IMG/VR virus record: IMGVR_UViG_3300025128_000046
Coordinates: 1-56,026 of that record
Reading direction: 5' to 3' (one strand)
Origin: a virus
Lineage: Duplodnaviria > Caudoviricetes
DNA: 56,026 nucleotides
Below are positions 11,438 to 52,076 of the stretch, in pieces. The notes under the pieces are model-generated. The model saw only the letters and a list, made by a program, of their open reading frames with translations, did no database searches and was not told the origin of the DNA. Position 1 is the first letter of the stretch. Every line of letters begins with the position of its first letter. Both the position numbers and the translations under genes were made by a program.

Positions 11438-11466
11438 ATTATACCATATTTTTAATGCTTTTGCAA
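11438..11466 (-). promoter_or_regulatory. Sigma70-type late promoter for scaffold/capsid operon
   Basis: Minus strand TTGCAA-N17-TATAAT(AGTA) with extended TGn. Confidence 0.75.
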
Positions 11467-12084: not shown

Positions 12085-12264
12085 TTAAGAGGTAGCCCTC
12101 TTAGTACTTTTTAGAGGTTTAGGCATTTCATAAGAAAAATCATCCCACTCATTGAGTGCGCTTCTCATGCTACGTGGACCCCAAACATCTTTTTTAAATG
12201 GATTACCAAAAGTTTTTGATGTATCCTTTACATGCTCTGGATAACCCTTACCTTTTTTCATCAT
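12085..12264 (-). CDS. Small hypothetical protein (59 aa)
   Basis: Below ORF-track cutoff. MMKKGKGYPEHVKD...; ATG overlaps the portal stop; GGAG RBS. Confidence 0.6.
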   Translation of the reverse strand: MMKKGKGYPEHVKDTSKTFGNPFKKDVWGPRSMRSALNEWDDFSYEMPKPLKSTKRATS

Positions 12265-14738
12265 TAGTCTTCTCCTTTTTTCATTTCTTCAACAGCTAAA
12301 CGTGACAATGTATTTAGCTTTGTTTCTTCTACATCTTTATCATCTTTCATTTCTTCAATCTTAATCTTAGCAAGATTATTCATTGCAGTAATTTCTTTCT
12401 TGGATTCTCTATCAGCTTCAGCTTTCTCACGTTTAAACTTATCAGTAGCACCAGACTCAAGCATATCCAATATTTGTTCATTCTCTTCAAGTTCAAGTTT
12501 CTTTGTCTTGAGTTCAAGTTCAGCAGCCGTAACAGCCGTATCAGATTGTAGTTTCTGTTGTTGTAACTTAACCTTCTCTTGCTCAAGCATAACAAGCTGT
12601 TGTTCTGGTGTTGGAGGTGGTGGCTGTTGATTGGCTTGCATAACTTTTTGTGCAGCCTCTGCCATAGCCATTTCAATAACAGAAGGTTGACCTTGTTGTT
12701 CTGCTGGAACTTGTTGCATCATTTGTTCTGTAACACCACTCATTTGTTCTTGATACTTCAGTACAGAATGTTCTTGTATATTAGATTCAAGTACAGGTTT
12801 AATCCTAGCCATAATAGGATTAGCACCATTGGCAGGGTCTTGTAAATAAGCCATCTTAACTTGTATATGAGCATCGTGGTTCTGTGCAGGAAAAGCTGCA
12901 ATAGGTAAACCTTTTGTAACAGCCATGATATCAGATACAGGGTCAAGCGGTTGTGGCTCAATCTTGGGTGGCAATATTTGCTCTAGGTTAGGCATGTTGG
13001 CTGCATTGAGAATAGTCCTGTTAAGTTCCTCAATGTTAAACATACCTGGTGGCGACTGCTGTGCCATTTGCAGAGCCATGTTTGCCAACATCATACGATG
13101 GGCATTAGAAGGAATATTAGGGTCAGAAACAGGTACAATATCCACTCGTCCATCAAAGTCAGCTTTAAATATATTTCTATCTTCAAACGGTACTTCATAA
13201 GGATATTCATTAGGTAAATAATCATGGTCTATCTGCGCCAGTATTCTAAACTCATCCCTTTGTGACTTATGTAATCTTTTATGAATTGCAGAGAAAAACT
13301 TACTTGAAGCTTCTAGCAATGCCATTGTTGTTCCAACGGGTCCATAGGAGGCAGCATCAGAGATAACTTGCTCAGTACTGTCTGCAAACTTCTGACCAGC
13401 AGCAGTTACAAACCCAAGCATCTGGAAGAGCGTTGAGGAAGGCTCTTTATAGGGCAGGGGAACTATAGCCCTAGATAAATCAATACCAGTTGCTTCGACC
13501 TCCTTGAACTCGCCAGGAGCGATTGGTTCATTATCACCAACCATCCTTACTCCCTTTGCCTTAAAACCGCCTGGTAAATTGGCGAACTGTCCAGCGTCTA
13601 TGAGGGAGCGCATCGCAGCAGTTGCCGACATGGTGAGATTACCAAGGAAATGGATAAGGCCCAATCCATAGAATCCAAAACCAGGTACAAACCTATAGTG
13701 AACGAAATGGCTTCGCTTCTCTTTATTCGGGTCATCCTGCTCGTAGTTTCTACGAATACTTAAAACTTGTCTTGACTGTTCCTCTACAGTTACAATGTAT
13801 GGACAAGCAACACCTTCTTCTTCTAACTCAAGATAACAGTGTTGCTCCAGTAATACATATTGTGGGTCACTATCATATGATGGAGATATACCCAAAATAT
13901 TATCTATCTTAGTTGCAAAACCACTAGAAGAAAGCTGTGATGGAGAAGGTAGGTCTACATCTTTGTAAACACCTGCTCTAATATCCTGTTGTAATTCTAC
14001 AGGACTTTTATATATCACATGTGTATAGCGGTCTGCATTTCTTAAATCAGTAGCATAGTAAGATACATAGAACTGGTCTATAGGTATAAACTCTGATACT
14101 GGTCTTTTAAAAGTTGAGCTATAATAAATCTTTTTAAATGCCGAACCTATAAGAGGGAGATGAAAAAGCATTCTTTCAAATTCATCAAAGTACTCTGGCA
14201 TCTGTTCTGTAAGCTGATAGTTCATAAAATTCTGAACCCTGTTGGCTTGCATTTCTTTCTCTGGTGTTGCGGCACCAAGAATGTTTGCCTTTACAGGGCC
14301 ACCAGAAGGAAATAATTCCTGTGTAGCTTTTGATTGAAACTTAACAGCCGATTCAATTAATAGCGGATGTACAGCCGTACAAGCTCCCTGAAATGGTTCT
14401 GAACCTTCTTCCAGCTTTAGACCAAGTAGGTCAAAGCCTCTTTCAAACATAGACTCCCACTCACCTCTGCTATCTTTATCTGCATTATAATTTTCAATAA
14501 CATCTGTAGATATACCTTGCAGGTCTTCTTCATCTAGGTCTTCACTGAGGTCACCATACCATTCAGATACTTCTTCTGAAGCTTCCATCTCTACAGACTC
14601 TGAAGAAAAGTCTACAATAACACCACCATCAGAAGGGTCAATCTCAATAGACACATTGGACTGTTCTTCAGGGACCATTGCAATAATATTAGTCTCCGCT
14701 TCAGGAATTATATCAAAAGGATTACGTTCTGTTGCCAT
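12264..14738 (-). CDS. Portal protein
   Basis: 824 aa; HPLLIESAVKFQ, GSAFKKIYY, PGFGFYGLGL, NLPGGFKAKG; long Q-rich/coiled-coil C-terminus; position in packaging module. Confidence 0.85.
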   Translation of the reverse strand: MATERNPFDIIPEAETNIIAMVPEEQSNVSIEIDPSDGGVIVDFSSESVEMEASEEVSEWYGDLSEDLDEEDLQGISTDVIENYNADKDSRGEWESMFERGFDLLGLKLEEGSEPFQGACTAVHPLLIESAVKFQSKATQELFPSGGPVKANILGAATPEKEMQANRVQNFMNYQLTEQMPEYFDEFERMLFHLPLIGSAFKKIYYSSTFKRPVSEFIPIDQFYVSYYATDLRNADRYTHVIYKSPVELQQDIRAGVYKDVDLPSPSQLSSSGFATKIDNILGISPSYDSDPQYVLLEQHCYLELEEEGVACPYIVTVEEQSRQVLSIRRNYEQDDPNKEKRSHFVHYRFVPGFGFYGLGLIHFLGNLTMSATAAMRSLIDAGQFANLPGGFKAKGVRMVGDNEPIAPGEFKEVEATGIDLSRAIVPLPYKEPSSTLFQMLGFVTAAGQKFADSTEQVISDAASYGPVGTTMALLEASSKFFSAIHKRLHKSQRDEFRILAQIDHDYLPNEYPYEVPFEDRNIFKADFDGRVDIVPVSDPNIPSNAHRMMLANMALQMAQQSPPGMFNIEELNRTILNAANMPNLEQILPPKIEPQPLDPVSDIMAVTKGLPIAAFPAQNHDAHIQVKMAYLQDPANGANPIMARIKPVLESNIQEHSVLKYQEQMSGVTEQMMQQVPAEQQGQPSVIEMAMAEAAQKVMQANQQPPPPTPEQQLVMLEQEKVKLQQQKLQSDTAVTAAELELKTKKLELEENEQILDMLESGATDKFKREKAEADRESKKEITAMNNLAKIKIEEMKDDKDVEETKLNTLSRLAVEEMKKGED

Positions 14739-17458
14739 TATTTAATTCCCATAGCAGGATTGTATTGAAGCCCAAAGCCACTACTAAATGGTTGTTGAGT
14801 GCCAAAGGGTGCAGGACTTTGCATACCAAACCCTTGAAGATTTTGACCCATGCTTTGTTGTTGCATTGCTGGTCTTCCATAAAGTTGAGAAGTATATGCT
14901 TGGTCCATATTTTGTTGTAAACCTTGTAGACCTGTAGGTTGTGGTTGTTGTTCTATCATAGGTCCATTAGTAACTTCTAGAACTTGTGGTTGAAGTATAG
15001 TAGGTATTTGAGGCATCATTTCGTCATCTATTGAAGTCTTTGGCTCATCACCTATTGGAAGTGGTTCATAAAGTGGGTCACCTGGTTCTTGAACATTAAT
15101 AGGCAGTACTGGTTTATCAACTGTTGTAATTGGAAATCCTTTAGGAAGTCCAAAATCTTCTACCACATTACCTTGTGCATCTCTGACCATGCCTTCATCA
15201 TCTCTATAAAAACTTTTTTGTTTTTGAAGTGCTTGACGTTCTGCTGCGGTTTGTGGTGTTGTTCCTAATTGTGCTATTCTAAGTTTTTGTAATTCTCTTG
15301 CTGTTTGTTCAGGGTCAAAAGTAGGTCCACCAGTTTGTCTACGTATTAGATTGCGTAGTCCACCACCACCATAAGCTTCTGTGGTTTCATCTTCATCATC
15401 TTCATCGGGTAAACCAATTGTTTGTTTTAATTTAGGCAGTGCAGGTATTCTTAGTCTTGCTTCTTCTGGAGATATACCATAAGCTGCAGCATATAGATTA
15501 GGACTAAATGGTGCAAATCCAGTATAATTAAACTTGGGTGTTTTTAAAGCTTCTTGTCTACGTATCCTAGCCATCTTTGCAAACAAATCTTCAGGCGCAC
15601 CTGCTGGTTGTGCTGCTACTGCAGCTTGGTAGGGTGAAGCAGATTGTGTTGTAGAAGGCGCATATGGAGAAGGTACACCCAATCTTTCAAAGTACTGAGC
15701 CATTGCTGACTTAGGTTCTTCTTTTTCTTCTTCTTTCTTTTTAGGTATGATTATTGGGTCATCACCTTGTATTTCTTCAAAAGCAATGTCAGGGGTAATA
15801 CCTAGATTAGCAAAGTCTCTTGCTTCTTGAGCATATCCTTCTCTAAGTGCTTCGTCAGTCATAAAACCAACATCTAAGGCTGCTCCACCATAACCAGGTG
15901 AGGCAGGACCAGTACTCATAGTGTATTCTTCAGGGCCTAAAGGTCTACCTGTCATCGTGTATTCTTCAGGGCCTCTAGGTCTAGCTGTCATAGTATACTC
16001 TTCTGGACCTCTAGGTCTTCCTGTCATCGTGTATTCTTCTGGACCTCTAGGTCTTCCTGTCATCGTGTATTCTTCAGGGCCTCTAGGTCTAGCTGTCATA
16101 GTATACTCTTCAGGGCCTAAAGGTCTATCAGAATCACTTTTAGCTGCTTTAGCTGCTTTAGCTGCTTTAGCTGTGCTTTTTTGAAGTGCCTCAAAATCTA
16201 TATCTTTTAAACTTCTTGCTGCATCTCTAAGGTCATATCCTAATCCTCCTAGCTGCGCTCTTTGAGAAACCTGTGCTGTAGGTCCATAAGCATCTAAAGC
16301 TGCACCACCATATTGACCCATTGATGGTGATACTTCCATAGTATATTCTTCTGGTCCTAAAGGTCTATCTTCCATAGTGCCTGTCATGGTATACTCTTCT
16401 GGACCTCTAGGTCTACCTTCCATAGTATACTCTTCAGGGCCTAAAGGTCTTCCTGTCATAGTATACTCTTCAGGGCCTAAAGGTCTTCCTGTCATCGTGT
16501 ATTCTTCAGGGCCTAAAGGTCTACCTTCCATAGTATATTCTTCAGGGCCTAAAGGTCTACCTTCCATAGTATATTCTTCAGGGCCTCTAGGTCTTCCTGT
16601 CATAGTATACTCTTCAGGGCCTAAAGGTCTATCTGTTGGGGTAAATTCACCAATACCTACATCACGACCAATATCTGAAGTTACAGCATTAACTTGTTCT
16701 TGCGTTACTTCACTTGGGCTTACACCAAATCTATCTGCAACTTCATTTCTTAAATCTGTGCCAATATCAGCTACAACACCAGGCAAACCCGTTAGCATAT
16801 CATAAAAGCCTCTTCCTGCATCTATTGCTATACTAGCTGGGCTAAACTGACTATAGAAATCACCTGCTGCTCCCAATACTGCACCAACTGCGTCAGCACC
16901 TGAATAGGTATAGTTACCATCTTTATCTACTGTAACATTAAGGTCGAGTCCTAAAGCAGATGCGTCTTCAACCATATTATCAGCTACTTGCTGGTCACGG
17001 GCTTGTATACCTTTATCTACTGTCTCAGCATATCCTAAATCAGACAGTTCATTATAGCCTAATCCAATATCAAAAGAACCATCACCAGCATAACCACCAC
17101 CAAAGCCAGTACCTTCAACATCTTCATAATCATCCATACCTTTTTGAGAACGCTCTGCTGCTTCTTCTTGTTCTTTATCTCCTTCTAAACCAGGCGCACC
17201 ATAATCTGCTTCTAAACCTGCTTCCATTGAAGCATGAGAACCTTTACCACCTATACCTTCATAATTTTCAAAATCAGCGGCTGTTAGTCCTGTTGATTTA
17301 TCTTTACCTGTATCAGTTCCAGTACCACCACCACTATCACTGTCACCACCATCACCACCAAAGCAACAATGCTGAAGTTCATACTCATTAAAGTAGTTTA
17401 ACCACGGCTGTTTAGCAGGGCCATCATTCCACATTTGTTTTTTAAATTCTTTCAACAT
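14738..17458 (-). CDS. 906-aa acidic low-complexity protein with 12-aa tandem repeats; putative internal virion protein and acylation substrate
   Basis: N-terminal leader ending HCCFGG, then a Gly/Asp-rich tract, 14 copies of (G/D/A)RP(L/R)GPEEYTM(T/E/S), and a Q-rich tail; overlaps the upstream HlyC-like gene. Confidence 0.8.
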   Translation of the reverse strand: MLKEFKKQMWNDGPAKQPWLNYFNEYELQHCCFGGDGGDSDSGGGTGTDTGKDKSTGLTAADFENYEGIGGKGSHASMEAGLEADYGAPGLEGDKEQEEAAERSQKGMDDYEDVEGTGFGGGYAGDGSFDIGLGYNELSDLGYAETVDKGIQARDQQVADNMVEDASALGLDLNVTVDKDGNYTYSGADAVGAVLGAAGDFYSQFSPASIAIDAGRGFYDMLTGLPGVVADIGTDLRNEVADRFGVSPSEVTQEQVNAVTSDIGRDVGIGEFTPTDRPLGPEEYTMTGRPRGPEEYTMEGRPLGPEEYTMEGRPLGPEEYTMTGRPLGPEEYTMTGRPLGPEEYTMEGRPRGPEEYTMTGTMEDRPLGPEEYTMEVSPSMGQYGGAALDAYGPTAQVSQRAQLGGLGYDLRDAARSLKDIDFEALQKSTAKAAKAAKAAKSDSDRPLGPEEYTMTARPRGPEEYTMTGRPRGPEEYTMTGRPRGPEEYTMTARPRGPEEYTMTGRPLGPEEYTMSTGPASPGYGGAALDVGFMTDEALREGYAQEARDFANLGITPDIAFEEIQGDDPIIIPKKKEEEKEEPKSAMAQYFERLGVPSPYAPSTTQSASPYQAAVAAQPAGAPEDLFAKMARIRRQEALKTPKFNYTGFAPFSPNLYAAAYGISPEEARLRIPALPKLKQTIGLPDEDDEDETTEAYGGGGLRNLIRRQTGGPTFDPEQTARELQKLRIAQLGTTPQTAAERQALQKQKSFYRDDEGMVRDAQGNVVEDFGLPKGFPITTVDKPVLPINVQEPGDPLYEPLPIGDEPKTSIDDEMMPQIPTILQPQVLEVTNGPMIEQQPQPTGLQGLQQNMDQAYTSQLYGRPAMQQQSMGQNLQGFGMQSPAPFGTQQPFSSGFGLQYNPAMGIK
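15914..16129 (-). repeat. Six 36-bp coding tandem repeats
   Basis: Units such as gtcatcgtgtattcttcagggcctctaggtct; in frame; no spacers. Confidence 0.9.
16139..16171 (-). repeat. 9-bp coding tandem repeat (Ala-Ala-Lys)
   Basis: (tttagctgc)x3 plus a partial copy. Confidence 0.85.
16334..16633 (-). repeat. Eight 36-bp coding tandem repeats with one 12-bp insertion
   Basis: Same unit as 15914-16129; 8x36+12=300 bp. Confidence 0.9.
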
Positions 17459-17849
17459 TGTTCACCCTATTGCTCCCCAACCGTTTAAAATTAACTTTAT
17501 TTGGTAATCCTAATTCTTTTCTTAGGTTATCCAATCTCTTAATTGCAATACGTGTACCACCAAAAGGACATATCACATCTATCAACCAAAGGTTATCTCC
17601 ACTGTTCCAATCGTGTGGTTGAATCTTTCTTGTTCGATTTTTATAACCTTCTTCAGCTTCTTCTGGTAACATTGCCCAACTTGCATAACAGAGTGGAACT
17701 TCTTCATCTACATATATTCTATATTGATTTAACCTTAGTGGTGGTATAACCAATCGTTGTATATCTCTTATAGTCCAATTCTCATGTTTAACAGACAATG
17801 ATAATATAAATAATACCTTTTCTAAATCACTTCGATAATCGTGTTGCAA
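17442..17849 (-). CDS. RTX toxin-activating lysine acyltransferase (HlyC/TAAT family)
   Basis: SxxH (SVKH), PP..LNQY, PLCYASWA and DWNSGDNLWLIDVICPFGG match HlyC-family signatures. Probable TTG start at 17849 overlapping the upstream gene (ORF track starts at 17894). Confidence 0.88.
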   Translation of the reverse strand: MQHDYRSDLEKVLFILSLSVKHENWTIRDIQRLVIPPLRLNQYRIYVDEEVPLCYASWAMLPEEAEEGYKNRTRKIQPHDWNSGDNLWLIDVICPFGGTRIAIKRLDNLRKELGLPNKVNFKRLGSNRVNNVERI

Positions 17850-18120
17850 TAATCTCTTCTGCCTTTGGTAGTAATCTAATACCACAGTACCCAATCATGA
17901 ATGCTATGGCTGGACCCCAAGTCATATCCAAGGCCCAATGTTTCATTATGGGTGGTATAAACCACTCTGCAGCTATCCACCCCACTATAATTGCAAGACC
18001 AACATCTTTTATAGCGGTCCAATTAAAATTCTTTTTTGTTAATACATTGGTTGCACCGCCTACTCCACTGGAAAGAATACAACATGTTTTAGCTCCAAGC
18101 GTTTGAATTAACCACTCCAT
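17827..18120 (-). CDS. Small membrane protein with 2-3 TM segments (holin-like)
   Basis: 97 aa; hydrophobic segments VGLAIIVGWIAAEWFI and WGPAIAFMIGYCG; AAGGAG RBS. Confidence 0.7.
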   Translation of the reverse strand: MEWLIQTLGAKTCCILSSGVGGATNVLTKKNFNWTAIKDVGLAIIVGWIAAEWFIPPIMKHWALDMTWGPAIAFMIGYCGIRLLPKAEEIIATRLSK

Positions 18121-18173
18121 TGTTTGTCTCCTTATTAGATTGTTACCATATAAAACCTATTTTTGTTTATACT

Positions 18174-18202
18174 ATTATATCACATTTTTACTCTGAATGC
18201 AA
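18174..18202 (-). promoter_or_regulatory. Sigma70-type late promoter ahead of the holin-like/HlyC/906-aa cassette
   Basis: Minus strand TTGCAT-N17-TATAAT(AGTA) with extended TGn, immediately after the terL stop. Confidence 0.75.
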
Positions 18203-18203
18203 A

Positions 18204-19748
18204 TCAGAAGGTCCAATAAGTTTTTTTCTTCTCTGTTACTTCATCATCATAATGTGGGTCATCGGGGTGTACCATATGCCAAGACTCCTTCATATAGTGT
18301 ATAGCCATTGTCATGGCATCCACTTGGTCATCGTGAGCCGCATTGGGAAATCTTAGTAATTCTTCAATCAGTTCATCTGACCACTTCTTGTTATTGGGTA
18401 TCCACATTCTACCAGCTTCTATGATAGGTGAGGCCGCATATACTCTTGACACCTTATCTCTATCTGGATTGTACTCCAGTACAGGTAGTCCACCTCTACG
18501 CATATCCTGTATAAGTGATTGCCCACTGGCCTTCTTCTCCACCATACATACATCTGGCTGGTGTTCATTGTAGAGTTTCTGTGCCAGCTTTCTCAGTTCT
18601 GGATATTCAAACCTACCTCTAATGTTTCCCAACAATATCATGTGCGGTACAAAATCCTCATATCCAATCTCATCCTGATTGTACATGGAGAATATACCCC
18701 ATGTCTGTATGACACTGTAATCAGCCGTGGTCTTGGTAGAGAATGCCGTATCATAGGTTTGAACTATGAAATCACATGTTGGCGGCTCCTCATATTCCCA
18801 ATACTTGAGCCATTTCTTTTTGATGATACCACCCTCTTCTGGAGTGGGGTCTTGCATGTAGAGAGCATTCCAGTATCGGCTACCATTACTTGCTTTAATC
18901 TCGCTCTCGTCCATTCTCAGGATATCATCGCTCTTCCACTCTGGAAAATAGCTGGAGCCTACAGGGAGTCCCAAGAGTTCTGACGCATCATCGTCCACCC
19001 ACGCAGGTATTCTAATAACTTCCCACGGGATTGTTTCAAACTCTCCCATATTCTCCTGTTGTTTTAGCAACCAGCCACATAGGTCATCATAGTGGTAGCG
19101 TGTATTGATAATAACTATAGAGCCGTTGGGCATAATACGGGTTCTTAGTCCAGCAGGGTACCACTCCTTGATATATCTCCTACCTGATGCACTGATTGCG
19201 TCCTCTTCAGACATCACATCATCCAATATAGCAATATGTGCGCCCCTACCAGCTATTTGAGAGCGTACACCAGCAGCATAGTACGTCCCATTCTGGTTTG
19301 TCTTCCACTTACCAGCGGCTCTTACGTCGCTCCTTAAAGAGACTCCTTTAAATATCTTTTGAAATTCTTCTGTATTCACCACATCTCTAACAGACCGTCC
19401 AAAGTCACTGGATAACTGGTCACTATGGGATACAGTCAGTATCTCATGTTCAGGGTTCCTTCCAATATACCAAGCAGGAAAGAGTTTAGAACAGATAACA
19501 GACTTAGAAGACCGTGGTGGAAGAAATACCATCAGCCGTTTTATCTTACCAGACTCTAAATCCTTTAGTTTATCTGATATAACTTCGATATGTCTACCCA
19601 TCCTCCAATCAGATACCAGCATTGGAGCCATCATCCTAACAAATGTAATGAAATCTGTTTTAGATTGTTGATTTACTTTTTGGTCTAACAATCCTTTTAG
19701 ATTAATAAAGGGTTGTAGATACTCATTAGTGCTTTCTAGTATATTCAT
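18204..19748 (-). CDS. terL: Terminase large subunit
   Basis: Walker A PPRSSKS, Walker B AILDD, INTRYH, nuclease YDTA...DYS and HDDQVD. Probable start ATG 19748 (MNILES). Confidence 0.93.
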   Translation of the reverse strand: MNILESTNEYLQPFINLKGLLDQKVNQQSKTDFITFVRMMAPMLVSDWRMGRHIEVISDKLKDLESGKIKRLMVFLPPRSSKSVICSKLFPAWYIGRNPEHEILTVSHSDQLSSDFGRSVRDVVNTEEFQKIFKGVSLRSDVRAAGKWKTNQNGTYYAAGVRSQIAGRGAHIAILDDVMSEEDAISASGRRYIKEWYPAGLRTRIMPNGSIVIINTRYHYDDLCGWLLKQQENMGEFETIPWEVIRIPAWVDDDASELLGLPVGSSYFPEWKSDDILRMDESEIKASNGSRYWNALYMQDPTPEEGGIIKKKWLKYWEYEEPPTCDFIVQTYDTAFSTKTTADYSVIQTWGIFSMYNQDEIGYEDFVPHMILLGNIRGRFEYPELRKLAQKLYNEHQPDVCMVEKKASGQSLIQDMRRGGLPVLEYNPDRDKVSRVYAASPIIEAGRMWIPNNKKWSDELIEELLRFPNAAHDDQVDAMTMAIHYMKESWHMVHPDDPHYDDEVTEKKKTYWTF

Positions 19749-19754
19749 AGTACT

Positions 19755-19783
19755 ATTATACACTAAAAAATACTAATATGCAA
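19755..19783 (-). promoter_or_regulatory. Sigma70-type promoter of terL (probably leaderless transcript)
   Basis: Minus strand TTGCAT-N17-TATAAT(AGTA); predicted +1 coincides with ATG 19748. Confidence 0.7.
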
Positions 19784-32394: not shown

Positions 32395-32823
32395 ATGCAC
32401 TGGAAATATCGTAAGAAGCCAGACCCTAATGATAACTTTGGGTTCGTATATCTTATAACCAATAAGAAAACAGGTAAAGCATATGTAGGTTGTAAACAAT
32501 ATTGGCATCAAGTTAAAAGAAAGAAAGGAAGTTTCAAAGCAAGGAAGAGAGAATCAAACTGGAAAATATATATGGGTTCTTCAAAATTGCTATTGGATGA
32601 TATTAAGAAGTTAGGTAAAAGAAATTTTAAGTTTGAAATAATAGCAGAGTTTAAAAATAAAAGGAGCATAAAGTACTACGAACTTTACTATCAGATGAAG
32701 TATAATGTTTTATCCTCTACCTTAGAAGGTACAGATGAACCAGCTTTCTATAACAACTATGTCGGTGGTAAGTTCTATAGACCTGTTCAAGAATTTGATA
32801 ATGAACCAAAAAGATTTAGATAA
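32395..32823 (+). CDS. GIY-YIG endonuclease
   Basis: GFVYLITN..TGKAYVG, YMGSS, FYN. Confidence 0.85.
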   Translation: MHWKYRKKPDPNDNFGFVYLITNKKTGKAYVGCKQYWHQVKRKKGSFKARKRESNWKIYMGSSKLLLDDIKKLGKRNFKFEIIAEFKNKRSIKYYELYYQMKYNVLSSTLEGTDEPAFYNNYVGGKFYRPVQEFDNEPKRFR

Positions 32824-35254: not shown

Positions 35255-35821
35255 ATGGAACTTACTGCTGAGATAGCTAGAGAATTATTAACTTACAATC
35301 CTGATACTGGTAAACTTTACTGGAAAGAAAGACCAGCAAAATATTTTAAAAATCCTAAATGGCATATGAAGTCTTGGAATAATAAATTTGCTGGTAAAGA
35401 AGCACTTACAGCCATTACTCGTAGAAAGTCTGGACAGATAGCTAGATTAGATGGTTTTGTGTTAAGAAAAAGGTATTCTACACATCGTATAGTATGGTTA
35501 ATATATTATGGTGAGTGGCCTAAAAATCAAATAGACCATATCAATCAAGACCCTACAGATAATAGAATTAAAAATCTTAGGGATGTGACTTGTAGTGAAA
35601 ATAATAAAAATAGAACATTACAAAATAATAGTACAACTGGTTATGCAGGTGTGAGTTTTTATAAACGACATAAAAAATATCGTGCAGAAATATATATTAA
35701 TAAAATTAAAAAACATTTAGGATATTATGACACTGTTGAAGAAGCAGCATCAGCTAGAGCAGTAGCAAATATTAATTACAACTTTCATCCTAATCATGGC
35801 AATCATAAAGTAACTGAATGA
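35255..35821 (+). CDS. Free-standing HNH homing endonuclease with AP2-like domain
   Basis: HRIVW...IDHINQDPTDNRIKNL; GYAGVS...HLGYY...A. Confidence 0.9.
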   Translation: MELTAEIARELLTYNPDTGKLYWKERPAKYFKNPKWHMKSWNNKFAGKEALTAITRRKSGQIARLDGFVLRKRYSTHRIVWLIYYGEWPKNQIDHINQDPTDNRIKNLRDVTCSENNKNRTLQNNSTTGYAGVSFYKRHKKYRAEIYINKIKKHLGYYDTVEEAASARAVANINYNFHPNHGNHKVTE

Positions 35822-40383: not shown

Positions 40384-41095
40384 ATCAAATAAATTTTTTA
40401 GTAGGTATTCTCCTTCACCTAGATATACTAAGCTTCTTGAAGAGTATAAGGAGATGCACAAGAGTTCAAAGGGTATGTTCAATGGGCGTAGTCTTGTAAA
40501 GTATATTGATATAATTAAGAATTACCTAGAGAAGAATGAATGTAAAACACTTATTGATTATGGGTGTGGTAAAGGACTCCTCTATACAGATGATTATGAA
40601 CTGGTAACTGAGAAGAAACCTTTATATAAAAATCTTGATAAACCTTTACATGAGTATTGGAATTTAACAAAACATCGTTTATATGACCCTGCACATGAAG
40701 AGCATAGCGAACTTCCTATGGGTCTATATGATGCAGCTATATGTACTGATGTATTAGAACACGTACCTACTGATGACCTTCATTGGGTTATCAGAGAGAT
40801 ATGTAGCTTTGCACAGAAGATGGTCTTTCTTAACATAGCTTGTATGCCAGCCTTAAAGAAGCTCAAGGATGGTAGTAATGTACATATATCATTACATAGC
40901 CCTGAAGATTGGCTACAGTTTATTGCTGAGATTATAGATAAGAGTAACAAAGATATAATAGTTTACGTTTTCTTTGATGTCTTTGATGATAAAGAAAAAT
41001 TAGTTACACAAGGATTTAAAATACATAGACGAATTAATATTGTACCCCTGACTCAGGAAGATGAGAAGGGTACAGCTTTAATGGGAGAAGAATAA
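40376..41095 (+). CDS. Class I SAM-dependent methyltransferase
   Basis: LIDYGCGKG, YDP, CTDVLEHVP. Confidence 0.85.
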   Translation: MIESNKFFSRYSPSPRYTKLLEEYKEMHKSSKGMFNGRSLVKYIDIIKNYLEKNECKTLIDYGCGKGLLYTDDYELVTEKKPLYKNLDKPLHEYWNLTKHRLYDPAHEEHSELPMGLYDAAICTDVLEHVPTDDLHWVIREICSFAQKMVFLNIACMPALKKLKDGSNVHISLHSPEDWLQFIAEIIDKSNKDIIVYVFFDVFDDKEKLVTQGFKIHRRINIVPLTQEDEKGTALMGEE

Positions 41096-41505
41096 TGGTA
41101 CTAGGAATAGCAGATTCAATAGTAGGAGTAGCAGGTAAGGTACTTGATAAGTTTGTAGCAGACAAAGACCTGAAAGCTAAGTTAGACTTTGAGCTACGTA
41201 AGGCATATGCTGATGCCAACCTTGCTCAGATAGATGTCAATAAAGAACAAGCAAAACATCCCAGCCTTTTTGTTGCGGGAGCTAGGCCCAGCATCATGTG
41301 GATATGTGCCTTTGGTTTAGGGTGGCAGTTTGTATTTCTACCTATAGCTGCATGGTATATAGCCGTGACAGGACAGGCAATACCACTACCAGATATTGAG
41401 ACTGAAGGCTTGATGTCCCTGACACTTGCATTATTAGGACTTGGTGGTATGCGTACCTTTGAGAAAAGAAACGGTACACATAGAAATAATTTGAAGCATA
41501 GATAA
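41095..41505 (+). CDS. Holin, 3TM (GTA-holin-like)
   Basis: LDKFV.DKD, FVAGARP.I.W.C, LLGLGGMRTFEK. Confidence 0.8.
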   Translation: MVLGIADSIVGVAGKVLDKFVADKDLKAKLDFELRKAYADANLAQIDVNKEQAKHPSLFVAGARPSIMWICAFGLGWQFVFLPIAAWYIAVTGQAIPLPDIETEGLMSLTLALLGLGGMRTFEKRNGTHRNNLKHR

Positions 41506-41514
41506 CTGTTAAAA

Positions 41515-41868
41515 ATGAAAGCAGGTAAAATCTGGGGTGAAACAAATTCTATATTTAAAAATGGTGTGTTTGAATTTCATCATATAAAATTTACTAAAGG
41601 TAGTAAATGTAGTAAACATAAACACAAATATAAGTGGAATGGTTTTTATGTTACTAAAGGACAATTAATTATTAGAGTTTGGAAAAATAATTATAATCTT
41701 ATAGATGAAACACTTCTTAAAGAAGGTGAATGGACTACAGTAGGACCAAGAGAGTATCACCAGTTTGAGGCTGTATCAAATGGAGAAGCTCTTGAACTCT
41801 ATTGGGCTGAATTTGACCATGATGATATAGAACGTGAAACAGTAGGAGAGGCTAATGGGACTCAATGA
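41515..41868 (+). CDS. Cupin-domain protein (sugar isomerase/epimerase-like)
   Basis: K.WG, CS.H.H..K.N.FYV..G, YHQF. Confidence 0.8.
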   Translation: MKAGKIWGETNSIFKNGVFEFHHIKFTKGSKCSKHKHKYKWNGFYVTKGQLIIRVWKNNYNLIDETLLKEGEWTTVGPREYHQFEAVSNGEALELYWAEFDHDDIERETVGEANGTQ

Positions 41869-42307
41869 GAAACAGGAGAAGTTTGCACAGTCCTATATCT
41901 TACATAGGAATGCAACTGAAGCTGCCAAGTCTGCAGGGTATGCAGCAGCATCAGCAGCCAATCAAGGCTATAGACTTATTAACAATGATGAAGTAGCTGA
42001 ACGTGTCAGAGAACTAGAGAATGAACTTGAAACTAATGTAGATGTTATTGAAGAAATAGAAAGTCAATATACATTTGCCAGAGCCAATGGTCATACCAAT
42101 AGTGCATTGAAAGCTCTTGAATTATTATCTAGGGTACGAGGTAACAACTCAGAGCTAGATACAAACCTAGATGAGAAGTCTTTAGAGGATGGAATAGTAC
42201 AGTGTCTTAATATTTTAGGTGAGGATAAAGTCTATTCACTACTGGAAAAGTGTGATTTTGTAGAGGATATAGAAGAAGAGGGAGAAGATAGTACTGAAAT
42301 AGAGTAA
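41855..42307 (+). CDS. terS: Terminase small subunit
   Basis: LNEKQEKFAQSY...NATEAAKSAGY HTH motif; ALKALELL. Confidence 0.8.
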   Translation: MGLNEKQEKFAQSYILHRNATEAAKSAGYAAASAANQGYRLINNDEVAERVRELENELETNVDVIEEIESQYTFARANGHTNSALKALELLSRVRGNNSELDTNLDEKSLEDGIVQCLNILGEDKVYSLLEKCDFVEDIEEEGEDSTEIE

Positions 42308-42328
42308 ATCCACAGTAGCTAGGGTAGG

Positions 42329-42421
42329 AGGCCCGTACAGCAACATTGGTAGTCTTCGGGTGGGGTAGGTGCAGCGACCCCTTAGAAGGCTACTCAGTGA
42401 GGCTCTACGGGCCTGTTTTTT
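42329..42421 (+). terminator. Long imperfect GC-rich hairpin between convergent operons
   Basis: AGGCCCGTA/TACGGGCCT outer stem; inner CATTG/CAGTG, GTAGTCTTC/GAAGGCTAC and GGGGT/ACCCC; followed by a T run. Confidence 0.55.
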
Positions 42422-42436
42422 CAGCCTTCCTCAACT

Positions 42437-42763
42437 TTAGTACCCATATTGTCTAGAAGATTGACTCCCTTTCTTGTTTCTTAGCATTTTAAATATTCTG
42501 TTATGTTGTTTTATTATTGTCTTGGATTTGTTTTTATTCTTAGCCAAATCCTTTTTAATATCTTTCATATCTTGCATGACACGTTCCAAATCAAATTGCA
42601 TCTTGGCTTGGGTAACAACGACAGACTTTTGTGATTCCTGTTCATAGAACTTATATACTGTTTCTACTTTGCTATCCAACTTAGAGACATACCATATCAA
42701 TCCTATAGCTTGTAGAACCATAGCAAATATCAGCGCATAATTTAATTTAATATTATCCATCAT
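42437..42763 (-). CDS. Membrane-anchored coiled-coil protein (lysis module)
   Basis: N-terminal TM (ALIFAMVLQAIGLIWYVS), then coiled coil. Confidence 0.65.
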   Translation of the reverse strand: MMDNIKLNYALIFAMVLQAIGLIWYVSKLDSKVETVYKFYEQESQKSVVVTQAKMQFDLERVMQDMKDIKKDLAKNKNKSKTIIKQHNRIFKMLRNKKGSQSSRQYGY

Positions 42764-42840
42764 TCATCCTTTGCTAAATAATAACCAAACCAACAAACAA
42801 CCGCAAGTCCTACTGCACATAATAAAAATTCTACTAACAT
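42760..42840 (-). CDS. Tiny single-TM protein (26 aa)
   Basis: MLVEFLLCAVGLAVVCWFGYYLAKDE; overlaps both neighbours by stop/start coupling. Confidence 0.45.
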   Translation of the reverse strand: MLVEFLLCAVGLAVVCWFGYYLAKDE

Positions 42841-43226
42841 CACTTATAGCTCCATATTAAAGGTCTAGGATTTTCATCGCTGTCTTCTAGGTCATCAATG
42901 TGTATAAATCTTTTTATAACTGGTCCTCTTTGTGCTATACCTATACCTGTCATACCAGCATCAAAAGCTAAACGCACTAATCTAAATGCTTCCTTACCTG
43001 TAATAGATACATCCACAGCCCTACCTTTAATATGCGCTGAGTATCTAACCCCACCTATTACCATGTTATGTGCAGGGTGTCGATAACCTGAAGTAATAAT
43101 CATTGGTTGATTGAACTTTTTTCTTAACTGTATAAGTTTTGACATGAAAGCTTCATTCATATCACATACTCCAGTACCTTTACATTGCATCTCCTGCTCT
43201 GTAAAGAACTCCCAATTTCTAGACAT
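42840..43226 (-). CDS. Endolysin, peptidase M15A family
   Basis: ITSGYR...HN...SAHIKGRAVD...FIHID. Confidence 0.88.
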   Translation of the reverse strand: MSRNWEFFTEQEMQCKGTGVCDMNEAFMSKLIQLRKKFNQPMIITSGYRHPAHNMVIGGVRYSAHIKGRAVDVSITGKEAFRLVRLAFDAGMTGIGIAQRGPVIKRFIHIDDLEDSDENPRPLIWSYK

Positions 43227-43474
43227 TACTTTATTATTCTCTCCATTAAATTATCCAGCTTACTTTCTACGCGGTCAAAGCGGCTCATGATTTTATCAAG
43301 GTCTTTATCAACCTCATCTTTACGTGCGTACTCTCTCGCAATTTCCTCTCTGGTTCTGCTTACCAGTTTTCTATTCTCTTCTATCTTCACATTAATACCT
43401 CGCATCCACCATATAAACGAGCCACACGCAAGACTCAGTATAGCATTCCATATCATGTGGCTTGAACCATCCAT
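43226..43474 (-). CDS. Small membrane-anchored protein (lysis-associated)
   Basis: N-terminal TM; TREEIAREY; coiled coil. Confidence 0.7.
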   Translation of the reverse strand: MDGSSHMIWNAILSLACGSFIWWMRGINVKIEENRKLVSRTREEIAREYARKDEVDKDLDKIMSRFDRVESKLDNLMERIIK

Positions 43475-46400
43475 TACTTATTTCCTTTTAAAAATTTTGT
43501 TATTGCATTTCTATATGCTTCTTCAGGGAGTTCACCTATATGATGTCCTTCTTTATACAAATCAAACATAGCTTTTTTATTACCTTTAATAATTTTTTTA
43601 AGATATTTATCTCCTATACCCTTTTTTCCCCCTACTTCTTTATCTAAAATATCTCCATAAAAAAGAAGGTCTTGTTGTTTAGGAGTTAATTTAAAAATAT
43701 CTTTATGTTCTCTTGCTCGTGCCATCCAATCTTTTTCACCAATATATTTTTTCAATCTATTTAATGCTGGTACTATTGAACCCTCAACAAATTGATAAGC
43801 ACCTTTTGCTGTTGTTGCTTCTTCATCTCCAACAGGTTGATTAACCGCTGTATAACCACCAAAACCTCCACTCTCTGTATCTCTAGTTCTTTTAGCAAAC
43901 TCAGCTAAATTTTTTCTAGCTTCAGTGCGGTCTTCTTGTGTAGAATCTTTTTCCATTAGTCTATCTAAATGTTCGCCTATTAAATAATCTAAGTCAGAAT
44001 CATCTGAAGAAACTAATTTATTATTATCTTCAAGTTTAGGTTTTACTTTAGGTAATGGAGCAGTAGGTATCTGTCCCTGTTCCAGTGCAATCTTTAATTG
44101 CTCTTCTTCACCTACATTTAATGGACTAACGCCTAGCAAGTTCTTAAAGAAGTCTCCAATATACCCACCTATATTCATGTTAACAAGACCTTCATCTACC
44201 CTACTATAAAACTCTTGATTAATATTAGCAAGGTCATTAAAGATACTAAGTGGTACACCTTTATCAGTAAGCATCTTAATAAAGTCACGACTTGTATTTA
44301 GTTTATCAGGTAAGAAAACACCACGCCTGTAGTTATCTAATTCTGCATTGGCAAGTGCAATAGCCTCTACATCTTTACCTCTCTCATAATACCCATCATC
44401 AGTTGCAGCCATGATAACTTGTTCAAGACCAAACTTTCTTCTCTTGCCCTCACTATCTGTATAAGATATATTTTTATATAGACCTATTTTGTCAGCCAAT
44501 TTTTTACTAGCCAATAATTTTTGCCCTTGGTATCTTCTATATATATCAAGTAATTCTTGTTTATTCTCAGGTCTACTATAGTCTTTGACAGGCATAGTAC
44601 GAATAAAGTTTTTAAATTCTTTTTGGCTTTGAGACATGCTACGTATATCTTTAGATAGGGCAAAGCGCATTGAGCGTTTAACATCTATAGTAGATGGACG
44701 AATACCACTGGAAGCCCATACTGCAATGTCATTAGCTCTAAGAGGAAAACCAGAACTGCTTACACCCAATCCATCTTTAGTAGCTTTAGCAGCTTCAGAA
44801 GACTCCATATATTTAATTAAAGGTTCTATAGTACCTGGTACAATACTTTCAGCTAACTCAAGAATACCTCTCTTAACATTCTCTGTTGACAATCCTTCAT
44901 CACCTGGCATATTAGAATAGATACGCCTACCTGTTTCTAAATCTACACCAGTAACTACATTTAATAAGGCTTCATGCAAGAACTTCATATTAGTGTAAGG
45001 ACCAAGAATAGAGTTTGTCATACCTTTAAAAGCATCACTTATCTCAGTATCTGTTACATTTTCACCTGCTAATATTTTTGCAGTCATTAATCTCAGAGGT
45101 ACTTTAAGATAGTCTTGAGCATCAAAGTTAGCAGACCTAACATTTCTTGTTATAATTCTTCCTTGGTCATCTTCAACCAAACCATCCAAGAAATATGGAT
45201 TACCACCCTTACCCCAATCAGGAGCAAAAGCTTCAATACCTCTTTGAGTATCTTTATCGACACCAAGAACCTCATTATTAGTTCTAACATAAGCATCAAT
45301 ACCAGCACCCATTGCACCAAGACCAGCTAACTTACGCATACCGTGAATAGCTTGTGCTTTATTACCAGTTGATATTCCTTGATAAGTATCTTTAACAGCA
45401 AGAGAGACAATATTCTTTGTTGTTCTTAACATCTCAGAAGGAAATAAAGCATATGTACCAATAGGCATTCTACCTAGATATCTAGCTGCTGGTGACGCAA
45501 CACCATATGTAGGCATTGTGTTTATAACTCTATCAGATGCCATATCAAATATCTCATCTGCAGTTTTTTTAGGGAATATTTTTTTAAGTGCTGCAGTTTC
45601 AGCTTCATGAGCTATGAGTTTAGCATAGGTATCAGGAGAACCATACCAACGTGATGCTGCTTCCATTCCTTTTTTATATCCACGTATTACAAAGGGACCA
45701 GTTTTATCTCCATCATTTAAATTAATATTTCTAATAATCATTTCTGATGTAAGGTCACTATCAATAACACCATCTCTTTTTAACCTAGCAACTTTTTCCA
45801 TTACTTCAGGGTCTTCACTTCTAACACCCTTTCTCATTGCTCTAAGAGACTTTCTCATTGCTCCCCATGCCGCAGGATTTAATAAATATCCTGATGCTAT
45901 TAAGTTTTGTACAGCACCATAAGCGTTAATAGCATAGGCAGGTAAGTCTAAAACAGTTTGCGTAGATTGTCCAAAGGCTGCTGCTTGCTGTATACCTCTC
46001 CATATAGCACTACCACCTCCTTGTGGAAATATATTATCAACACCATCTTCAATAAGTTTTGACATCTCAGGGCTAACCCAAATATCTTTTAAAACATTAT
46101 CAGAATCTTTTGTTAGTGTTTTATATTGAGTATCACTTAATATTTTTTTATAAAATTCTCTTAGATTAACACCTTTTGGAAATGCTGTCCTTTGTATTCT
46201 TGCTGTATGTGTAGGTATAGCATTAACTAATCCACCTAATTCTAAATTAACATCTGAGTTTTTTGCAAGAATAGTTTCAAAAAATTTATTTACATCACTA
46301 AGATATTCTACTTCTCCAAGTATTTTGTTTTGTTTGGTAAGGGTCTTGGTTAACTTTTCAAATGGGTCTGTTACCTCACCTAATAAATTAAGAATAGAAT

Positions 46401-51587: not shown

Positions 51588-51810
51588 TATTCATTCTTCC
51601 ATAGTTCGATTGTATTTGTGTTTGCTCTGCCATAAAGTTAGGGTCTTCAGTAGGTTTTAATTTTTTAAATGTTTCCATCTTCTGTGTTAATAAATATCTA
51701 GTAGGGTCAATAACATTACCTTGATTAAGATTACTAACATAGGTGCTATTATTAATTAAATCATAATATTCTTCTGGTGACATTTTTTTCATTAGTTTAA
51801 ATTCTGCCAA
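51571..51810 (-). CDS. Hypothetical protein
   Basis: 79 aa; overlaps neighbours. Confidence 0.55.
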   Translation of the reverse strand: MAEFKLMKKMSPEEYYDLINNSTYVSNLNQGNVIDPTRYLLTQKMETFKKLKPTEDPNFMAEQTQIQSNYGRMNNGSTK

Positions 51811-52076
51811 GATGTTTCTGCTCCAAGACTAACATATCCTTTATATTTACCGCTACTTGCCGAATATGCTATATCTCCCTTACGTGGTCTTCCTATACTT
51901 GTTACTGTAACTACCGTATAAATATTTGTAGACGGGGCTGCATCAACATCTACATCTCTACTATCTAACTCAGATACTAATAATGCTGACCAACTCTCTA
52001 TTGTATTGTACAACTCTCTTAATTCATCAGTACTTATACCATTAAAGTTTGTTGGAAATGTTGGGTATCTTGCCAT
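51792..52076 (-). CDS. Small tail-associated protein
   Basis: 94 aa immediately after the tail tube gene; GDIAYS..GKYKGY..W. Confidence 0.65.
   Translation of the reverse strand: MARYPTFPTNFNGISTDELRELYNTIESWSALLVSELDSRDVDVDAAPSTNIYTVVTVTSIGRPRKGDIAYSASSGKYKGYVSLGAETSWQNLN

Follow-up and report, generated by a model that had tools for sequence, protein, structure and literature searches.

A toxin-activating-type acyltransferase gene overlapping the gene of a leader-bearing hypervariable protein in a marine podophage: a candidate lipidation cassette

The established clients of toxin-activating acyltransferases (TAATs) are, to our knowledge, RTX toxins, which they arm, and, since 2021, a single effector of contact inhibition; the enzymes are not known to acylate residues other than lysine. 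In the HlyC/HlyA, CyaC/CyaA and ApxC/ApxIA systems, the enzyme gene is located directly upstream of the gene of its large acidic client. A non-RTX client is found in class IV contact-dependent inhibition, where, as described in PMC8510554, the TAAT CdiC is associated with CdiA, a secreted bacterial filament that contacts the envelope of the target cell. According to the same text, the client region of CdiA is largely unstructured, the mapped Lys1467 carries 3-hydroxydecanoate, the acceptor Lys is not strictly invariant, and loci with broken or missing enzyme genes occur. The paper also gives the TAAT dyad as H37/D107 of CdiC and describes ApxC and CdiC as still partly active when only the His is lost.

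The phage locus described here shares with the three RTX systems the protein family, the fold and the His/Asp dyad of the enzyme, as well as the placement of the enzyme gene directly upstream of a large acidic protein, hereafter X. It differs from them in its phage setting, in the lack of RTX repeats, of a pore domain and of a conserved Gly-Lys site in X, in the lack of type I secretion genes in the window, and in the fact that many phage relatives of the enzyme have no dyad. By analogy with CdiC/CdiA, the TAAT could have been recruited to a client outside the RTX toxins, one that engages the envelope of another cell. Unlike CdiC/CdiA, the phage cassette sits in a virion gene module, and its best-conserved candidate acceptor is a Cys.

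The window, that is the whole stretch of 56,026 nucleotides that was analysed, comes from a ~56-kb HTVC023P-type marine podophage genome with a CheckV completeness of about 95%. On the minus strand, the order of the elements is terL, promoter, membrane gene, TAAT gene, X gene and portal. In particular, the large terminase gene terL (18204-19763; phrog_38, E 3.7e-112; Terminase_6C, E 5.6e-15), which forms the upstream flank, is followed by the gene of a 97-aa small membrane protein (17827-18120), an optional cassette member preceded by a good Shine-Dalgarno sequence (AAGGAG), by the TAAT/HlyC-family gene (17442-17894), which encodes 150 aa from a TTG start, by the X gene (14738-17458), whose product is an acidic, mostly disordered protein of 906 aa, and by the portal gene (12264-14738; phrog_1216, E 3.4e-41; 41% identity to the HTVC023P portal region). 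Neighbouring genes overlap by 68 nt (membrane gene and TAAT), 17 nt (TAAT and X) and 1 nt (X and portal, the portal ATG lying on the X stop codon). All the features listed by a first-pass annotation of this DNA are present in the sequence where it had placed them, and a megablast of the cassette against phage records gave no match. Two metatranscriptome runs share a small fraction with the locus. In addition, a 766-nt metatranscriptome contig, 90-95% alike, reaches in a relative from the end of terL across the membrane gene into the TAAT gene, most of which it covers, an RNA-library contig not being proof of transcription.

Straight after the terL stop codon lies a sigma-70-like promoter, TTTGCA-N18-TG.TATAAT (18174-18203, minus strand), with 10/12 consensus matches and the TG present. 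In a generic promoter scan such a match is unremarkable, as 17 sites were found versus 18.9 expected. The arrangement TTGCA-N16-19-TATAAT occurs four times in the window versus 0.58 expected, a number reached by 0/100 shuffles; three of the four matches precede structural gene blocks, and the cassette promoter shares its type with the promoters ahead of terL and of the scaffold/capsid block. This excess, together with the position before structural blocks, argues that the cassette promoter is of the phage's own type. Moreover, the -10 TATAAT and the upstream TG are identical in 16/16 related intergenic regions, including those of loci devoid of the membrane gene. The promoter had been taken as dedicated to the cassette: a conserved phage-type promoter is indeed there, and its exclusivity has to be dropped, as the portal is fed by it as well.

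The 97-aa protein shows hydrophobic segments at about residues 37-59 and 63-85 and a weaker one at 4-22, in agreement with its previous description as a membrane protein with two to three transmembrane segments (two clear, one weak). It has no match in Pfam, NCBIfam or by tblastn against phage records, and among holin families it matches only phrog_2359, weakly (E 1.6e-3). Elsewhere in the window (41095-43226), a strong holin match (phrog_3427, E 5.2e-26) is found with an endolysin.

The window enzyme is a genuine member of the TAAT family, with the GNAT-like fold of ApxC and an intact dyad. Specifically, its match to PF02794 (HlyC; E 2.7e-27) scores 95.6 bits where the curated threshold is 25, in agreement with the scan of its own genome, and contains the motifs SVKH (residues 34-37) and DWNSGDNLWLIDVICPFG (residues 95-112). 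In a phmmer comparison with ApxC (4WHN; E 7.6e-13), His37 and Asp106 are aligned to the His and Asp of ApxC, and they correspond to H37/D107 of CdiC. The AF2 model (pLDDT 88.6, pTM 0.80) retrieves 4WHN chains at ranks 1-3 in Foldseek (E 1.4e-7, probability 1.00, TMq 0.67); below them, the E value rises to 0.11. The assignment as an HlyC-type acyltransferase with intact motifs is thus borne out by family match, alignment and fold.

The locus brings hlyCA to mind by its gene order, with an acyltransferase ahead of a large acidic protein rich in Gly and Asp, and the closest bacterial relatives of the window enzyme adjoin type I secretion genes. Accordingly, X could be imagined as a secreted toxin of the RTX type that has diverged and that its own HlyC activates. 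We regard this as extremely improbable, since X contains 0 matches to the full RTX nonapeptide GGxGxDxUx and no RTX family in Pfam at E up to 0.1, and since it has no hydrophobic pore-forming segment (peak Kyte-Doolittle hydropathy 0.88 as a 19-residue mean). Furthermore, a PHROGs scan of the 51 window ORFs returned neither type I secretion (ABC/MFP) genes nor an RTX toxin, as already noted in the first-pass annotation. The heptads GGDGGDS and GGTGTDT, previously read as RTX-like, do occur in X, as do HCCF (residues 30-33), TGK and GGK; the G/D stretch, however, differs in every relative, and the resemblance is not above chance. The Gly-Lys pairs formerly put forward as acylation sites are not conserved: in the recurring GIGG-K-GSHA module, the Lys position is occupied by K, P, A or L in relatives, with P beside a dyad-intact enzyme, and TGK is not kept either.

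X is a protein with a pI of 4.39, 147 D+E versus 80 K+R and two Cys only, which, as judged by sequence comparison, consists of a constant N-terminal leader and a hypervariable disordered body. The leader (codons 1-33, 17360-17458, minus strand) ends in HCCF and follows the pattern MW.D…H.CFG, in which M1, W10, D12 and F33 are invariant and E27 and C32 near-invariant among 18-24 aligned relatives. A leader profile matched 70 cluster representatives at the 50% identity level, and in 69 of them the match begins within residue 8 of the protein. The leader Cys is kept in 66/67 and replaced once by Ser. No Lys of the leader is universal, and one apparently complete leader (P0147) has none at all. 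The residue after CF can be G, E, D or A (pairs GG, GS, EG, DG, AG, GD and GE), so that the 'xxGG' motif attributed to X does not stand. For the same reason, a double-glycine leader was rejected, GG/GA not being invariant after CF. A bacterial lipoprotein (lipobox) reading was also discarded, the leader being polar and aromatic and the peak 19-residue hydropathy 0.88. Finally, in a MAFFT alignment the M, D, F and G of the X leader fell in register with small poly-Gly peptides, which in MAGs of Hyphomicrobiales accompany TAAT genes and type I secretion genes; this kinship was rejected as unsupported, since the leader HMM finds nothing there and its best match lies elsewhere (E 280).

Between phages that share 81-95% identity in terL, portal and TAAT, the identity of X falls to 28-39%. 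The ESM Atlas model of X has a pLDDT of 0.38, and an Atlas search with X reached a feature score of 0.76 at best and a structure TM of at most 0.28. AF2 modelling of residues 1-330 with 43 sequences gave low confidence for the leader (47-62) and a confident block (pLDDT 72-95 at 131-200, 75-93 at 231-260), outlining a small domain at residues about 135-265 (16664-17056, minus strand), for which no fold match was found (best VIA Z 5.2 in a wide search, best BFVD E 0.053). The domain is followed by two arrays of a 36-bp repeat encoding GRP[LR]GPEEYTM[TE], one of 7.1 copies (16380-16635, minus strand) and one of 5.9 copies (15916-16127, minus strand), with 14 GPEEYTM units in all. X belongs to no family of Pfam, PHROG or NCBIfam, and tblastn against 50,697 phage records gave nothing; none of its 42 homologues is named or contains a Pfam domain. 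The cultured HTVC023P and HTVC027P have no X, which is therefore not a core part of the virion. This organization is reminiscent of T4-type phages, whose hypervariable internal (packaged) proteins are tagged by short leaders. X resembles them in the short constant N-terminal leader, the fast-diverging body, the accessory status and the location in a variable island, and differs in that no sequence relation exists, no acyltransferase is involved in T4, and cleavage and packaging of X are hypothetical.

The association of the two genes was examined in 80 IMG/VR loci out of 176 relatives, 78 of which were assessable. In 78/78 the partner gene starts between -45 and +40 nt from the TAAT stop codon, and in 42/42 assessable class-1 loci, a count that includes two (L045, L046) seen outside the script scan, the partner directly after the TAAT is of the X type, usually with a 17-nt overlap. 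Three loci (L073-L075) have the pair elsewhere in the genome, where it follows a virion protein of phrog_3287 and then one of 94 aa, and precedes homologues of the ejection-protein block of the window. The linkage to a 'CF-type' protein, whose absence the first-pass annotation would have counted against its reading, is therefore conserved at two genome positions, in favour of that reading, and sequence comparison indicates that the TAAT-X pair moves as a unit. The locus L029 points to the swapping of the module as a whole, as terL and portal are 98% identical to those of the window, while the TAAT is 63% and X 48% identical. A search for fused (Rosetta-stone) TAAT forms gave 0 among 1636 longer candidates, which is weak evidence.

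A possibility is that X is not the substrate at all, the acyltransferase acting instead on a protein of the host envelope, on a different phage protein or on the 97-aa protein, and X being an independent accessory gene that shares the same variable island. The terL-portal gap is in fact a cargo hot spot, holding a basic 201-aa protein in HTVC023P, a PcfJ-like 825-aa protein in DSL-LC04 and nothing in CRP-901; moreover, HTVC103P and HTVC104P keep both genes of their pair unlinked, with the TAAT in the early region beside a 107-aa protein. The invariable X-type pairing, its usual overlap and its recurrence at a second position make this quite unlikely, and the membrane gene is missing from many loci that keep the pair (L016-L019, L029, L049-L063), which speaks against the 97-aa protein as the target.

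The dyad is not a constant of the family. Among 55 close relatives, 23 have H+D, 27 have F/Y+N, 2 have F+D, 1 has H+T, and 2 without an N-terminus carry N; the enzymes of L073-L075 have H+N. The dyad-less clade is under purifying selection (dN/dS 0.16-0.30 against 0.11-0.22) and its members adjoin an unchanged leader (L029/L056, L022/L054), so that the conserved job may not be catalysis. That is, the TAAT-like protein might be mainly a non-catalytic pseudoenzyme, binding the X leader as a chaperone, assembly adaptor or targeting factor, with acyl transfer dispensable or lost in much of the family. This is compatible with the sipho lineage, where the TAAT slot between the L-like and J-like tail genes holds a DUF6950 gene in CRP-821 and nothing in HTVC202P. 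On the other hand, both residues of the dyad, with the motifs around them, are intact in the window protein and in 22 close relatives; the enzymes of two other lineages, described below, have I or Y at the His position, and the Asp is kept in those of their representatives that were aligned to ApxC, a state to be read against the partial activity left by His loss alone in PMC8510554. In DSL-LC06, moreover, the same slot is occupied by a GNAT acetyltransferase (PF00583, E 2.2e-9), another N-acyltransferase fold, which argues that the chemistry matters. We consider a mainly non-catalytic role unlikely, if still to be taken seriously.

The reading that we favour, tentatively and with slightly less than even confidence, is that the enzyme acts on the X leader and lipidates an accessory, virion-delivered protein. 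The cassette would be a two-gene module of enzyme and client, with an optional small membrane protein, embedded in the late structural operon. The 150-aa protein would be an active toxin-activating-type acyltransferase, taking a fatty acyl chain from host acyl-ACP, and we infer that it acts on X, which the next gene encodes, as its client. Recognition would occur through the constant N-terminal leader of 33-45 residues, and acylation within or beside it. Candidate acceptors are the near-invariant Cys32, the best conserved, and Lys6 and Lys16, which are typical of the family; since TAATs are known to us for Lys only, acylation of the Cys would be a new chemistry. The lipid would convert soluble, acidic, disordered and hypervariable X into a membrane-seeking protein, most likely an accessory one carried in the virion and acting at the host envelope during genome delivery. 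Of the interpretation given by the first-pass annotation, this retains the enzyme and its linkage to X and leaves aside the RTX resemblance, the Gly-Lys sites and the glycine motif.

That annotation had also considered a Cys or Gly exposed by leader removal. In this variant, the leader would primarily be a capsid-targeting or processing signal cut at or near CF, comparable to the short leaders of T4 internal proteins, and the enzyme would acylate whichever residue the cut leaves at the N-terminus. The combination of a constant leader with hypervariable bodies would fit, as would a conserved residue that is Cys and once Ser, typical nucleophiles. In addition, the partners of the other lineages start with MG, so that those enzymes would be presented with an unblocked Gly at the N-terminus, and partners of the MGSVVDAVV type have no Lys within their first 40 residues. 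Nevertheless, neither a protease nor a protease site was identified, the residue after CF is variable, and the AF2 confidence of the leader is low; we hold this variant to be very unlikely.

As for these other lineages, the TAAT gene precedes a J-like tail-tip gene, whose product starts with MG[SG][VIF]V, in 25 loci, and the gene of a Lys-rich membrane-active protein starting with MG[SA] in 11. Six cultured pelagiphages (HTVC112P, HTVC111P, HTVC026P, HTVC115P, HTVC103P and HTVC104P) carry a TAAT gene, and HTVC202P, a close relative, is without it. It is conceivable, if doubtful, that marine tailed phages have a lipidation system of their own, in which TAAT-type enzymes, gene-overlapped with their clients, acylate the extreme N-terminal region of virion proteins entering the envelope: the J-like tail tip and the Lys-rich internal protein, both with a start of the form MG[SG][IV]V, at the N-terminal glycine or a nearby Lys, and X perhaps at its conserved Cys. 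Eukaryotic viruses offer an analogy, as they employ lipid-modified entry proteins, for example N-myristoylated capsid penetration peptides, modified by host N-myristoyltransferase with acyl-CoA. The likeness would lie in a lipid-bearing protein of the particle that meets the host membrane and in the Met-Gly start of the partners of these two lineages; the difference, in that the phage would bring its own putative acyl-ACP-type enzyme.

Taken together, these data hint that some phages lipidate their own particle proteins. If true, the two kinds of TAAT client known so far would be joined by a third, the virion-module proteins with which the phage branch is always paired, and TAAT chemistry would be extended past internal lysines. 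We found no discussion in the literature of phage-encoded lipidation of own proteins, and pelagiphage supplementary gene lists may already include the gene family; as far as our literature search shows, this would be the first case of a phage supplying its own enzyme to lipidate its own proteins, and a prokaryotic-virus counterpart, with a virus-encoded enzyme, of the lipid-modified penetration proteins of animal viruses. The loss of the dyad in half of one clade would, in turn, provide a natural experiment on transitions from enzyme to pseudoenzyme. Finally, the literature counts pelagiphages of the HTVC023P, HTVC103P and HTVC111P types, together with their relatives, among the most abundant viruses of the sea, so that the mechanism could bear on entry into SAR11-type cells.

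The protein of 150 residues encoded at 17442-17894 (minus strand), between terL (18204-19763) and the portal gene (12264-14738), is an established member of the toxin-activating acyltransferase (TAAT) family. In particular, it matches PF02794 with an E of 2.7e-27 and the solved TAAT ApxC (PDB 4WHN) with an E of 7.6e-13, and its His37 and Asp106 align to the catalytic dyad that PMC8510554 assigns to His37/Asp107 in CdiC. An AlphaFold model, built with 24 relatives in the alignment, reaches a pLDDT of 88.6, and its sole significant matches in the PDB are ApxC chains (E 1.4e-7, TMq 0.67). The closest bacterial relatives, at eight loci, occupy classical settings, with either type I secretion genes or the gene for a large repeat protein as neighbours. 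On two Hyphomicrobiales MAG contigs (L125:382-4387 and L127:114-4408) such a relative lies behind an ABC transporter, with a membrane-fusion gene also ahead of it on L125, and small upstream ORFs of 81-97 aa join a short polar head to 12-13 consecutive glycines. These ORFs may be small exported TAAT clients; they give no match to an HMM of the phage leader described below.

All the cassette features listed in the first-pass annotation are present in the sequence. Following the terL stop codon, a TTTGCA-N18-TGaTATAAT element and a strong ribosome-binding site precede the genes for a 97-aa protein (17827-18120) in which two hydrophobic segments are clear, for the enzyme and for an acidic protein of 906 aa, here called X (14738-17458), whose stop codon runs into the ATG of portal. 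The enzyme ORF begins inside the end of the membrane gene, the two sharing 68 nt (17827-17894) in different frames, both kept in relatives possessing the membrane gene; in relatives devoid of it, the enzyme gene starts at an ATG about 20 codons further downstream. A generic promoter scan of the window gives no excess (17 sites versus 18.9 in shuffled sequence). The more specific pattern TTGCA-N16-19-TATAAT has four matches versus 0.58 expected, a number reached in none of 100 shuffles. All are on the minus strand (11438-11466, 18174-18202, 19755-19783 and 52757-52785); three are intergenic, ahead of terL, the X cassette and the scaffold/capsid block, and the fourth falls inside the phrog_3287 gene. 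The -10 box and its upstream TG are, in addition, unchanged in 16 of 16 related intergenic regions compared, including loci without the membrane gene. Because of this conservation and of the pattern excess, the cassette promoter looks real and of the phage's own structural-gene type. It had been described as dedicated to the cassette, and it is this exclusivity that has to be given up: since X overlaps portal, with no terminator between the two, the promoter would also serve the portal.

X belongs to no family in Pfam, PHROG or NCBIfam. It has a pI of 4.39, is largely disordered by prediction and carries 14 GPEEYTM units, encoded in two arrays of 36-bp repeats; the sole small domain modelled with confidence (residues ~135-265) matches no known fold. 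Its only two cysteines lie within the HCCF motif that closes a leader of 33 residues. RTX-like heptads and Gly-Lys pairs had been pointed out in X, and neither withstands comparison. Specifically, the stretch after HCCF is not conserved, its G/D sequence being unlike in every relative, there are no nonapeptide matches and no RTX Pfam hit, and the lysine of GIGG-K-GSHA is K, P, A or L in relatives. That X is an RTX toxin is thus essentially excluded. The leader, M[LF].E[FY]K[KR].MW.D ... YE..H.CFG, is shared by X-type partners and followed in them by 305-945 residues of G/D-rich acidic sequence. Out of 1.84 billion cluster representatives, a leader profile of 40 positions retrieves 70 (E ≤ 1e-3), with the match starting at most eight residues from the protein N-terminus in 69. 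The CF core is recognized by pattern in 67 of the 70, with the cysteine in 66 of these 67 and HCCFG as the commonest form (n=37). Cys32 is the best-conserved side chain of the leader. No leader lysine is conserved throughout, one apparently complete leader having none, and a family-typical acceptor is therefore not evident. A course in which the leader is removed and the new N-terminus then acylated is a lesser rival to the reading favored below, and appears quite improbable. Where terL, portal and enzyme reach 81-95% identity to their window counterparts, identity in X is only 28-39%, over part of the protein. Metagenome DNA contigs break, or diverge from the window, at several points inside X (at ~14741, 14963, 16679-16711, 16913 and 17086), consistent with the coexistence of many variants of X in nature.

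An enzyme scan of IMG/VR gave 23 loci. A profile scan gave 176 relatives, and the analysis continued with the best 80; two of these run off the contig, leaving 78 assessable. At every one of the 78, the start of a partner gene falls between -45 and +40 nt relative to the enzyme stop. X-type partners occur at 42 of them (40 by script, plus L045 and L046, seen on the same contigs in the first scan), all with the same leader, and the anticipated linkage to a CF-type downstream protein is thereby borne out. At three loci (L073-L075) the pair is relocated. The preceding genes there encode a virion protein of phrog_3287 and one of 94 aa, both with counterparts at 51792-54247 of the window, and homologues of the window's ejection-protein block follow. 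Since the pair occupies a second genome place, enzyme and leader-tagged gene travel together, and this is the strongest argument for a joint function.

The window portal is 40-43% identical to those of HTVC023P and HTVC027P (Pelagibacter phages), CRP-901/902 (Roseobacter phages) and DSL-LC04, and the phage is therefore an HTVC023P-type marine podophage. CheckV puts the completeness of the window, which is a whole virus record of 56,026 bases, at about 95%; replication genes form one arm, on the plus strand, and structural genes two arms, on the minus strand. Near-identical DNA occurs in marine metagenome runs, 24 being listed from 19 studies, with at least half of the sampled words present in six of them. 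Homing-endonuclease-like genes (32395-32823 and 35255-35821) lie either side of the nucleotide-metabolism block, and an HNH endonuclease (phrog_99, E 7e-60) sits between the genes for the large and small ribonucleotide reductase subunits. A 1674-aa ORF (43474-48498), following a 'DNA ejection protein' homologue and matching no PHROG at E up to 1e-4, is probably the giant internal or ejection protein of phages of this kind. In this group the interval between terL and portal serves as a cargo slot. It is occupied in HTVC023P by gp30, very basic, Lys/Gly-rich and of 201 aa (L036:5228-5833), and in DSL-LC04 by a protein of 825 aa that has a PcfJ-like domain (L038:3289-5766); in CRP-901 it contains no gene. 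The related locus L029 is 98% identical to the window in terL and portal, only 63% in the enzyme and 48% in X, and lacks the membrane gene. Backbones that are nearly identical thus exchange the module as a whole, so that X and the enzyme are accessory, not core.

Two further partner kinds, unrelated to X, appear in the same survey of the best 80 of 176 relatives. At 25 loci related to siphovirus HTVC112P, the enzyme gene is flanked by two tail genes, one L-like and the other a J-like tail-tip gene (the two representatives scanned match phrog_31, central tail fiber J, at E 2.8e-60 and 1.6e-83). The product of the J-like gene begins MGSVVDAVVNVV.., MGG[IV][IV].. or MGGFV.. and continues with a hydrophobic or amphipathic extension. 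At 11 loci related to HTVC115P, the enzyme gene lies upstream of that for a 417-453-aa protein in which an initial MGS[IV]VKK.. gives way to Lys-rich sequence and a hydrophobic segment. In HTVC103P and HTVC104P the enzyme gene belongs to the early region, yet the MGSVFKR.. protein is retained in the structural module; the latter is found in only three records of the phage collection, all with the enzyme. MG is the start of 17 of the 189 distinct ORFs (100 aa or longer) from these loci and the window, and 14 of the 17 are partners; as partners are homologous within each lineage, no more than two or three independent events are represented. Within the HTVC111P group the enzyme is present in 112P, 111P and 026P and absent from 202P, whose J-like protein starts MGIGSAFKK. 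The freshwater relative DSL-LC06 has a GNAT acetyltransferase (L119:1304-1789; PF00583, E 2.2e-9) in the enzyme slot, the hub (L-like)/J-like interval, ahead of a J-like protein starting MSKVLGKIFK.., and CRP-821 a DUF6950 protein. Action of the enzyme on another target is a further lesser rival, and improbable.

The dyad varies within the family: of 55 close relatives, 23 have His and Asp, 27 Phe/Tyr and Asn, two Phe and Asp, one His and Thr, and two, with the N-terminus missing, Asn at the Asp position; the relocated L073-L075 enzymes have His and Asn. In HTVC112P- and HTVC115P-type enzymes, spacing places Ile or Tyr where the His would be; the Asp is kept in the one representative per lineage aligned to ApxC. 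The Phe/Tyr and Asn enzymes mostly carry a correlated Ser34-to-Cys change. In the dyad-less clade (for example L029:4677-5069 and L055:1962-2354), His37 to Phe and Asp106 to Asn accompany Ser34 to Cys and Asn39 to Asp, a residue set that could mark decay or a different active site. Both clades are under purifying selection (dN/dS 0.11-0.22, and 0.16-0.30 in the dyad-less one), and the leader next to a dyad-less enzyme is unchanged. The dyad-less proteins would be either pseudoenzymes still binding the leader or users of another mechanism. His-to-Ala variants of CdiC and ApxC retain partial activity, according to PMC8510554; a missing Asp base is less easily reconciled with activity than a missing His. 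These losses are a serious warning for the acylation chemistry proposed here, and a non-catalytic, leader-binding role of the enzyme is the main rival, though an unlikely one.

No description of a phage TAAT-client system was found in the literature, subscription journals aside. A phage 'HlyC' occurs in the full-text literature only as a figure-legend label in a pelagiphage preprint (10.1101/2019.12.14.876532), whose accessible text does not discuss the gene, and the main text of the mSystems paper on HTVC023P-type genomes contains no acyltransferase, RTX, HlyC or toxin. For phage TAATs and lipidation the literature yields only the CdiC paper, in which the word 'phage' appears six times, never in connection with a phage acyltransferase. 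Titles and abstracts gave no myristoylated N-terminal-glycine phage tail protein, and the literature nothing on phage-encoded acyl-ACP lysine acylation of a virion protein.

The finding is real and more general than in the first-pass annotation, the chemistry of the enzyme-client pair being put forward as a proposal. Gene arrangement, enzyme family, fold and dyad, conservation of the pair and the promoter are directly supported, and acyl transfer, its site, the donor and the place of X in the virion are inferred. We tentatively favor, at somewhat short of an even chance, a reading in which the enzyme acylates the leader of X. The phage structural-gene promoter would transcribe the cassette together with the portal, and the enzyme would take an acyl chain from host acyl-ACP, dock on the constant leader of X and acylate it. 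The lipid would then direct the otherwise soluble, acidic and disordered X to a membrane, and X would probably be an accessory protein, in or with the particle, acting at the host envelope during entry.
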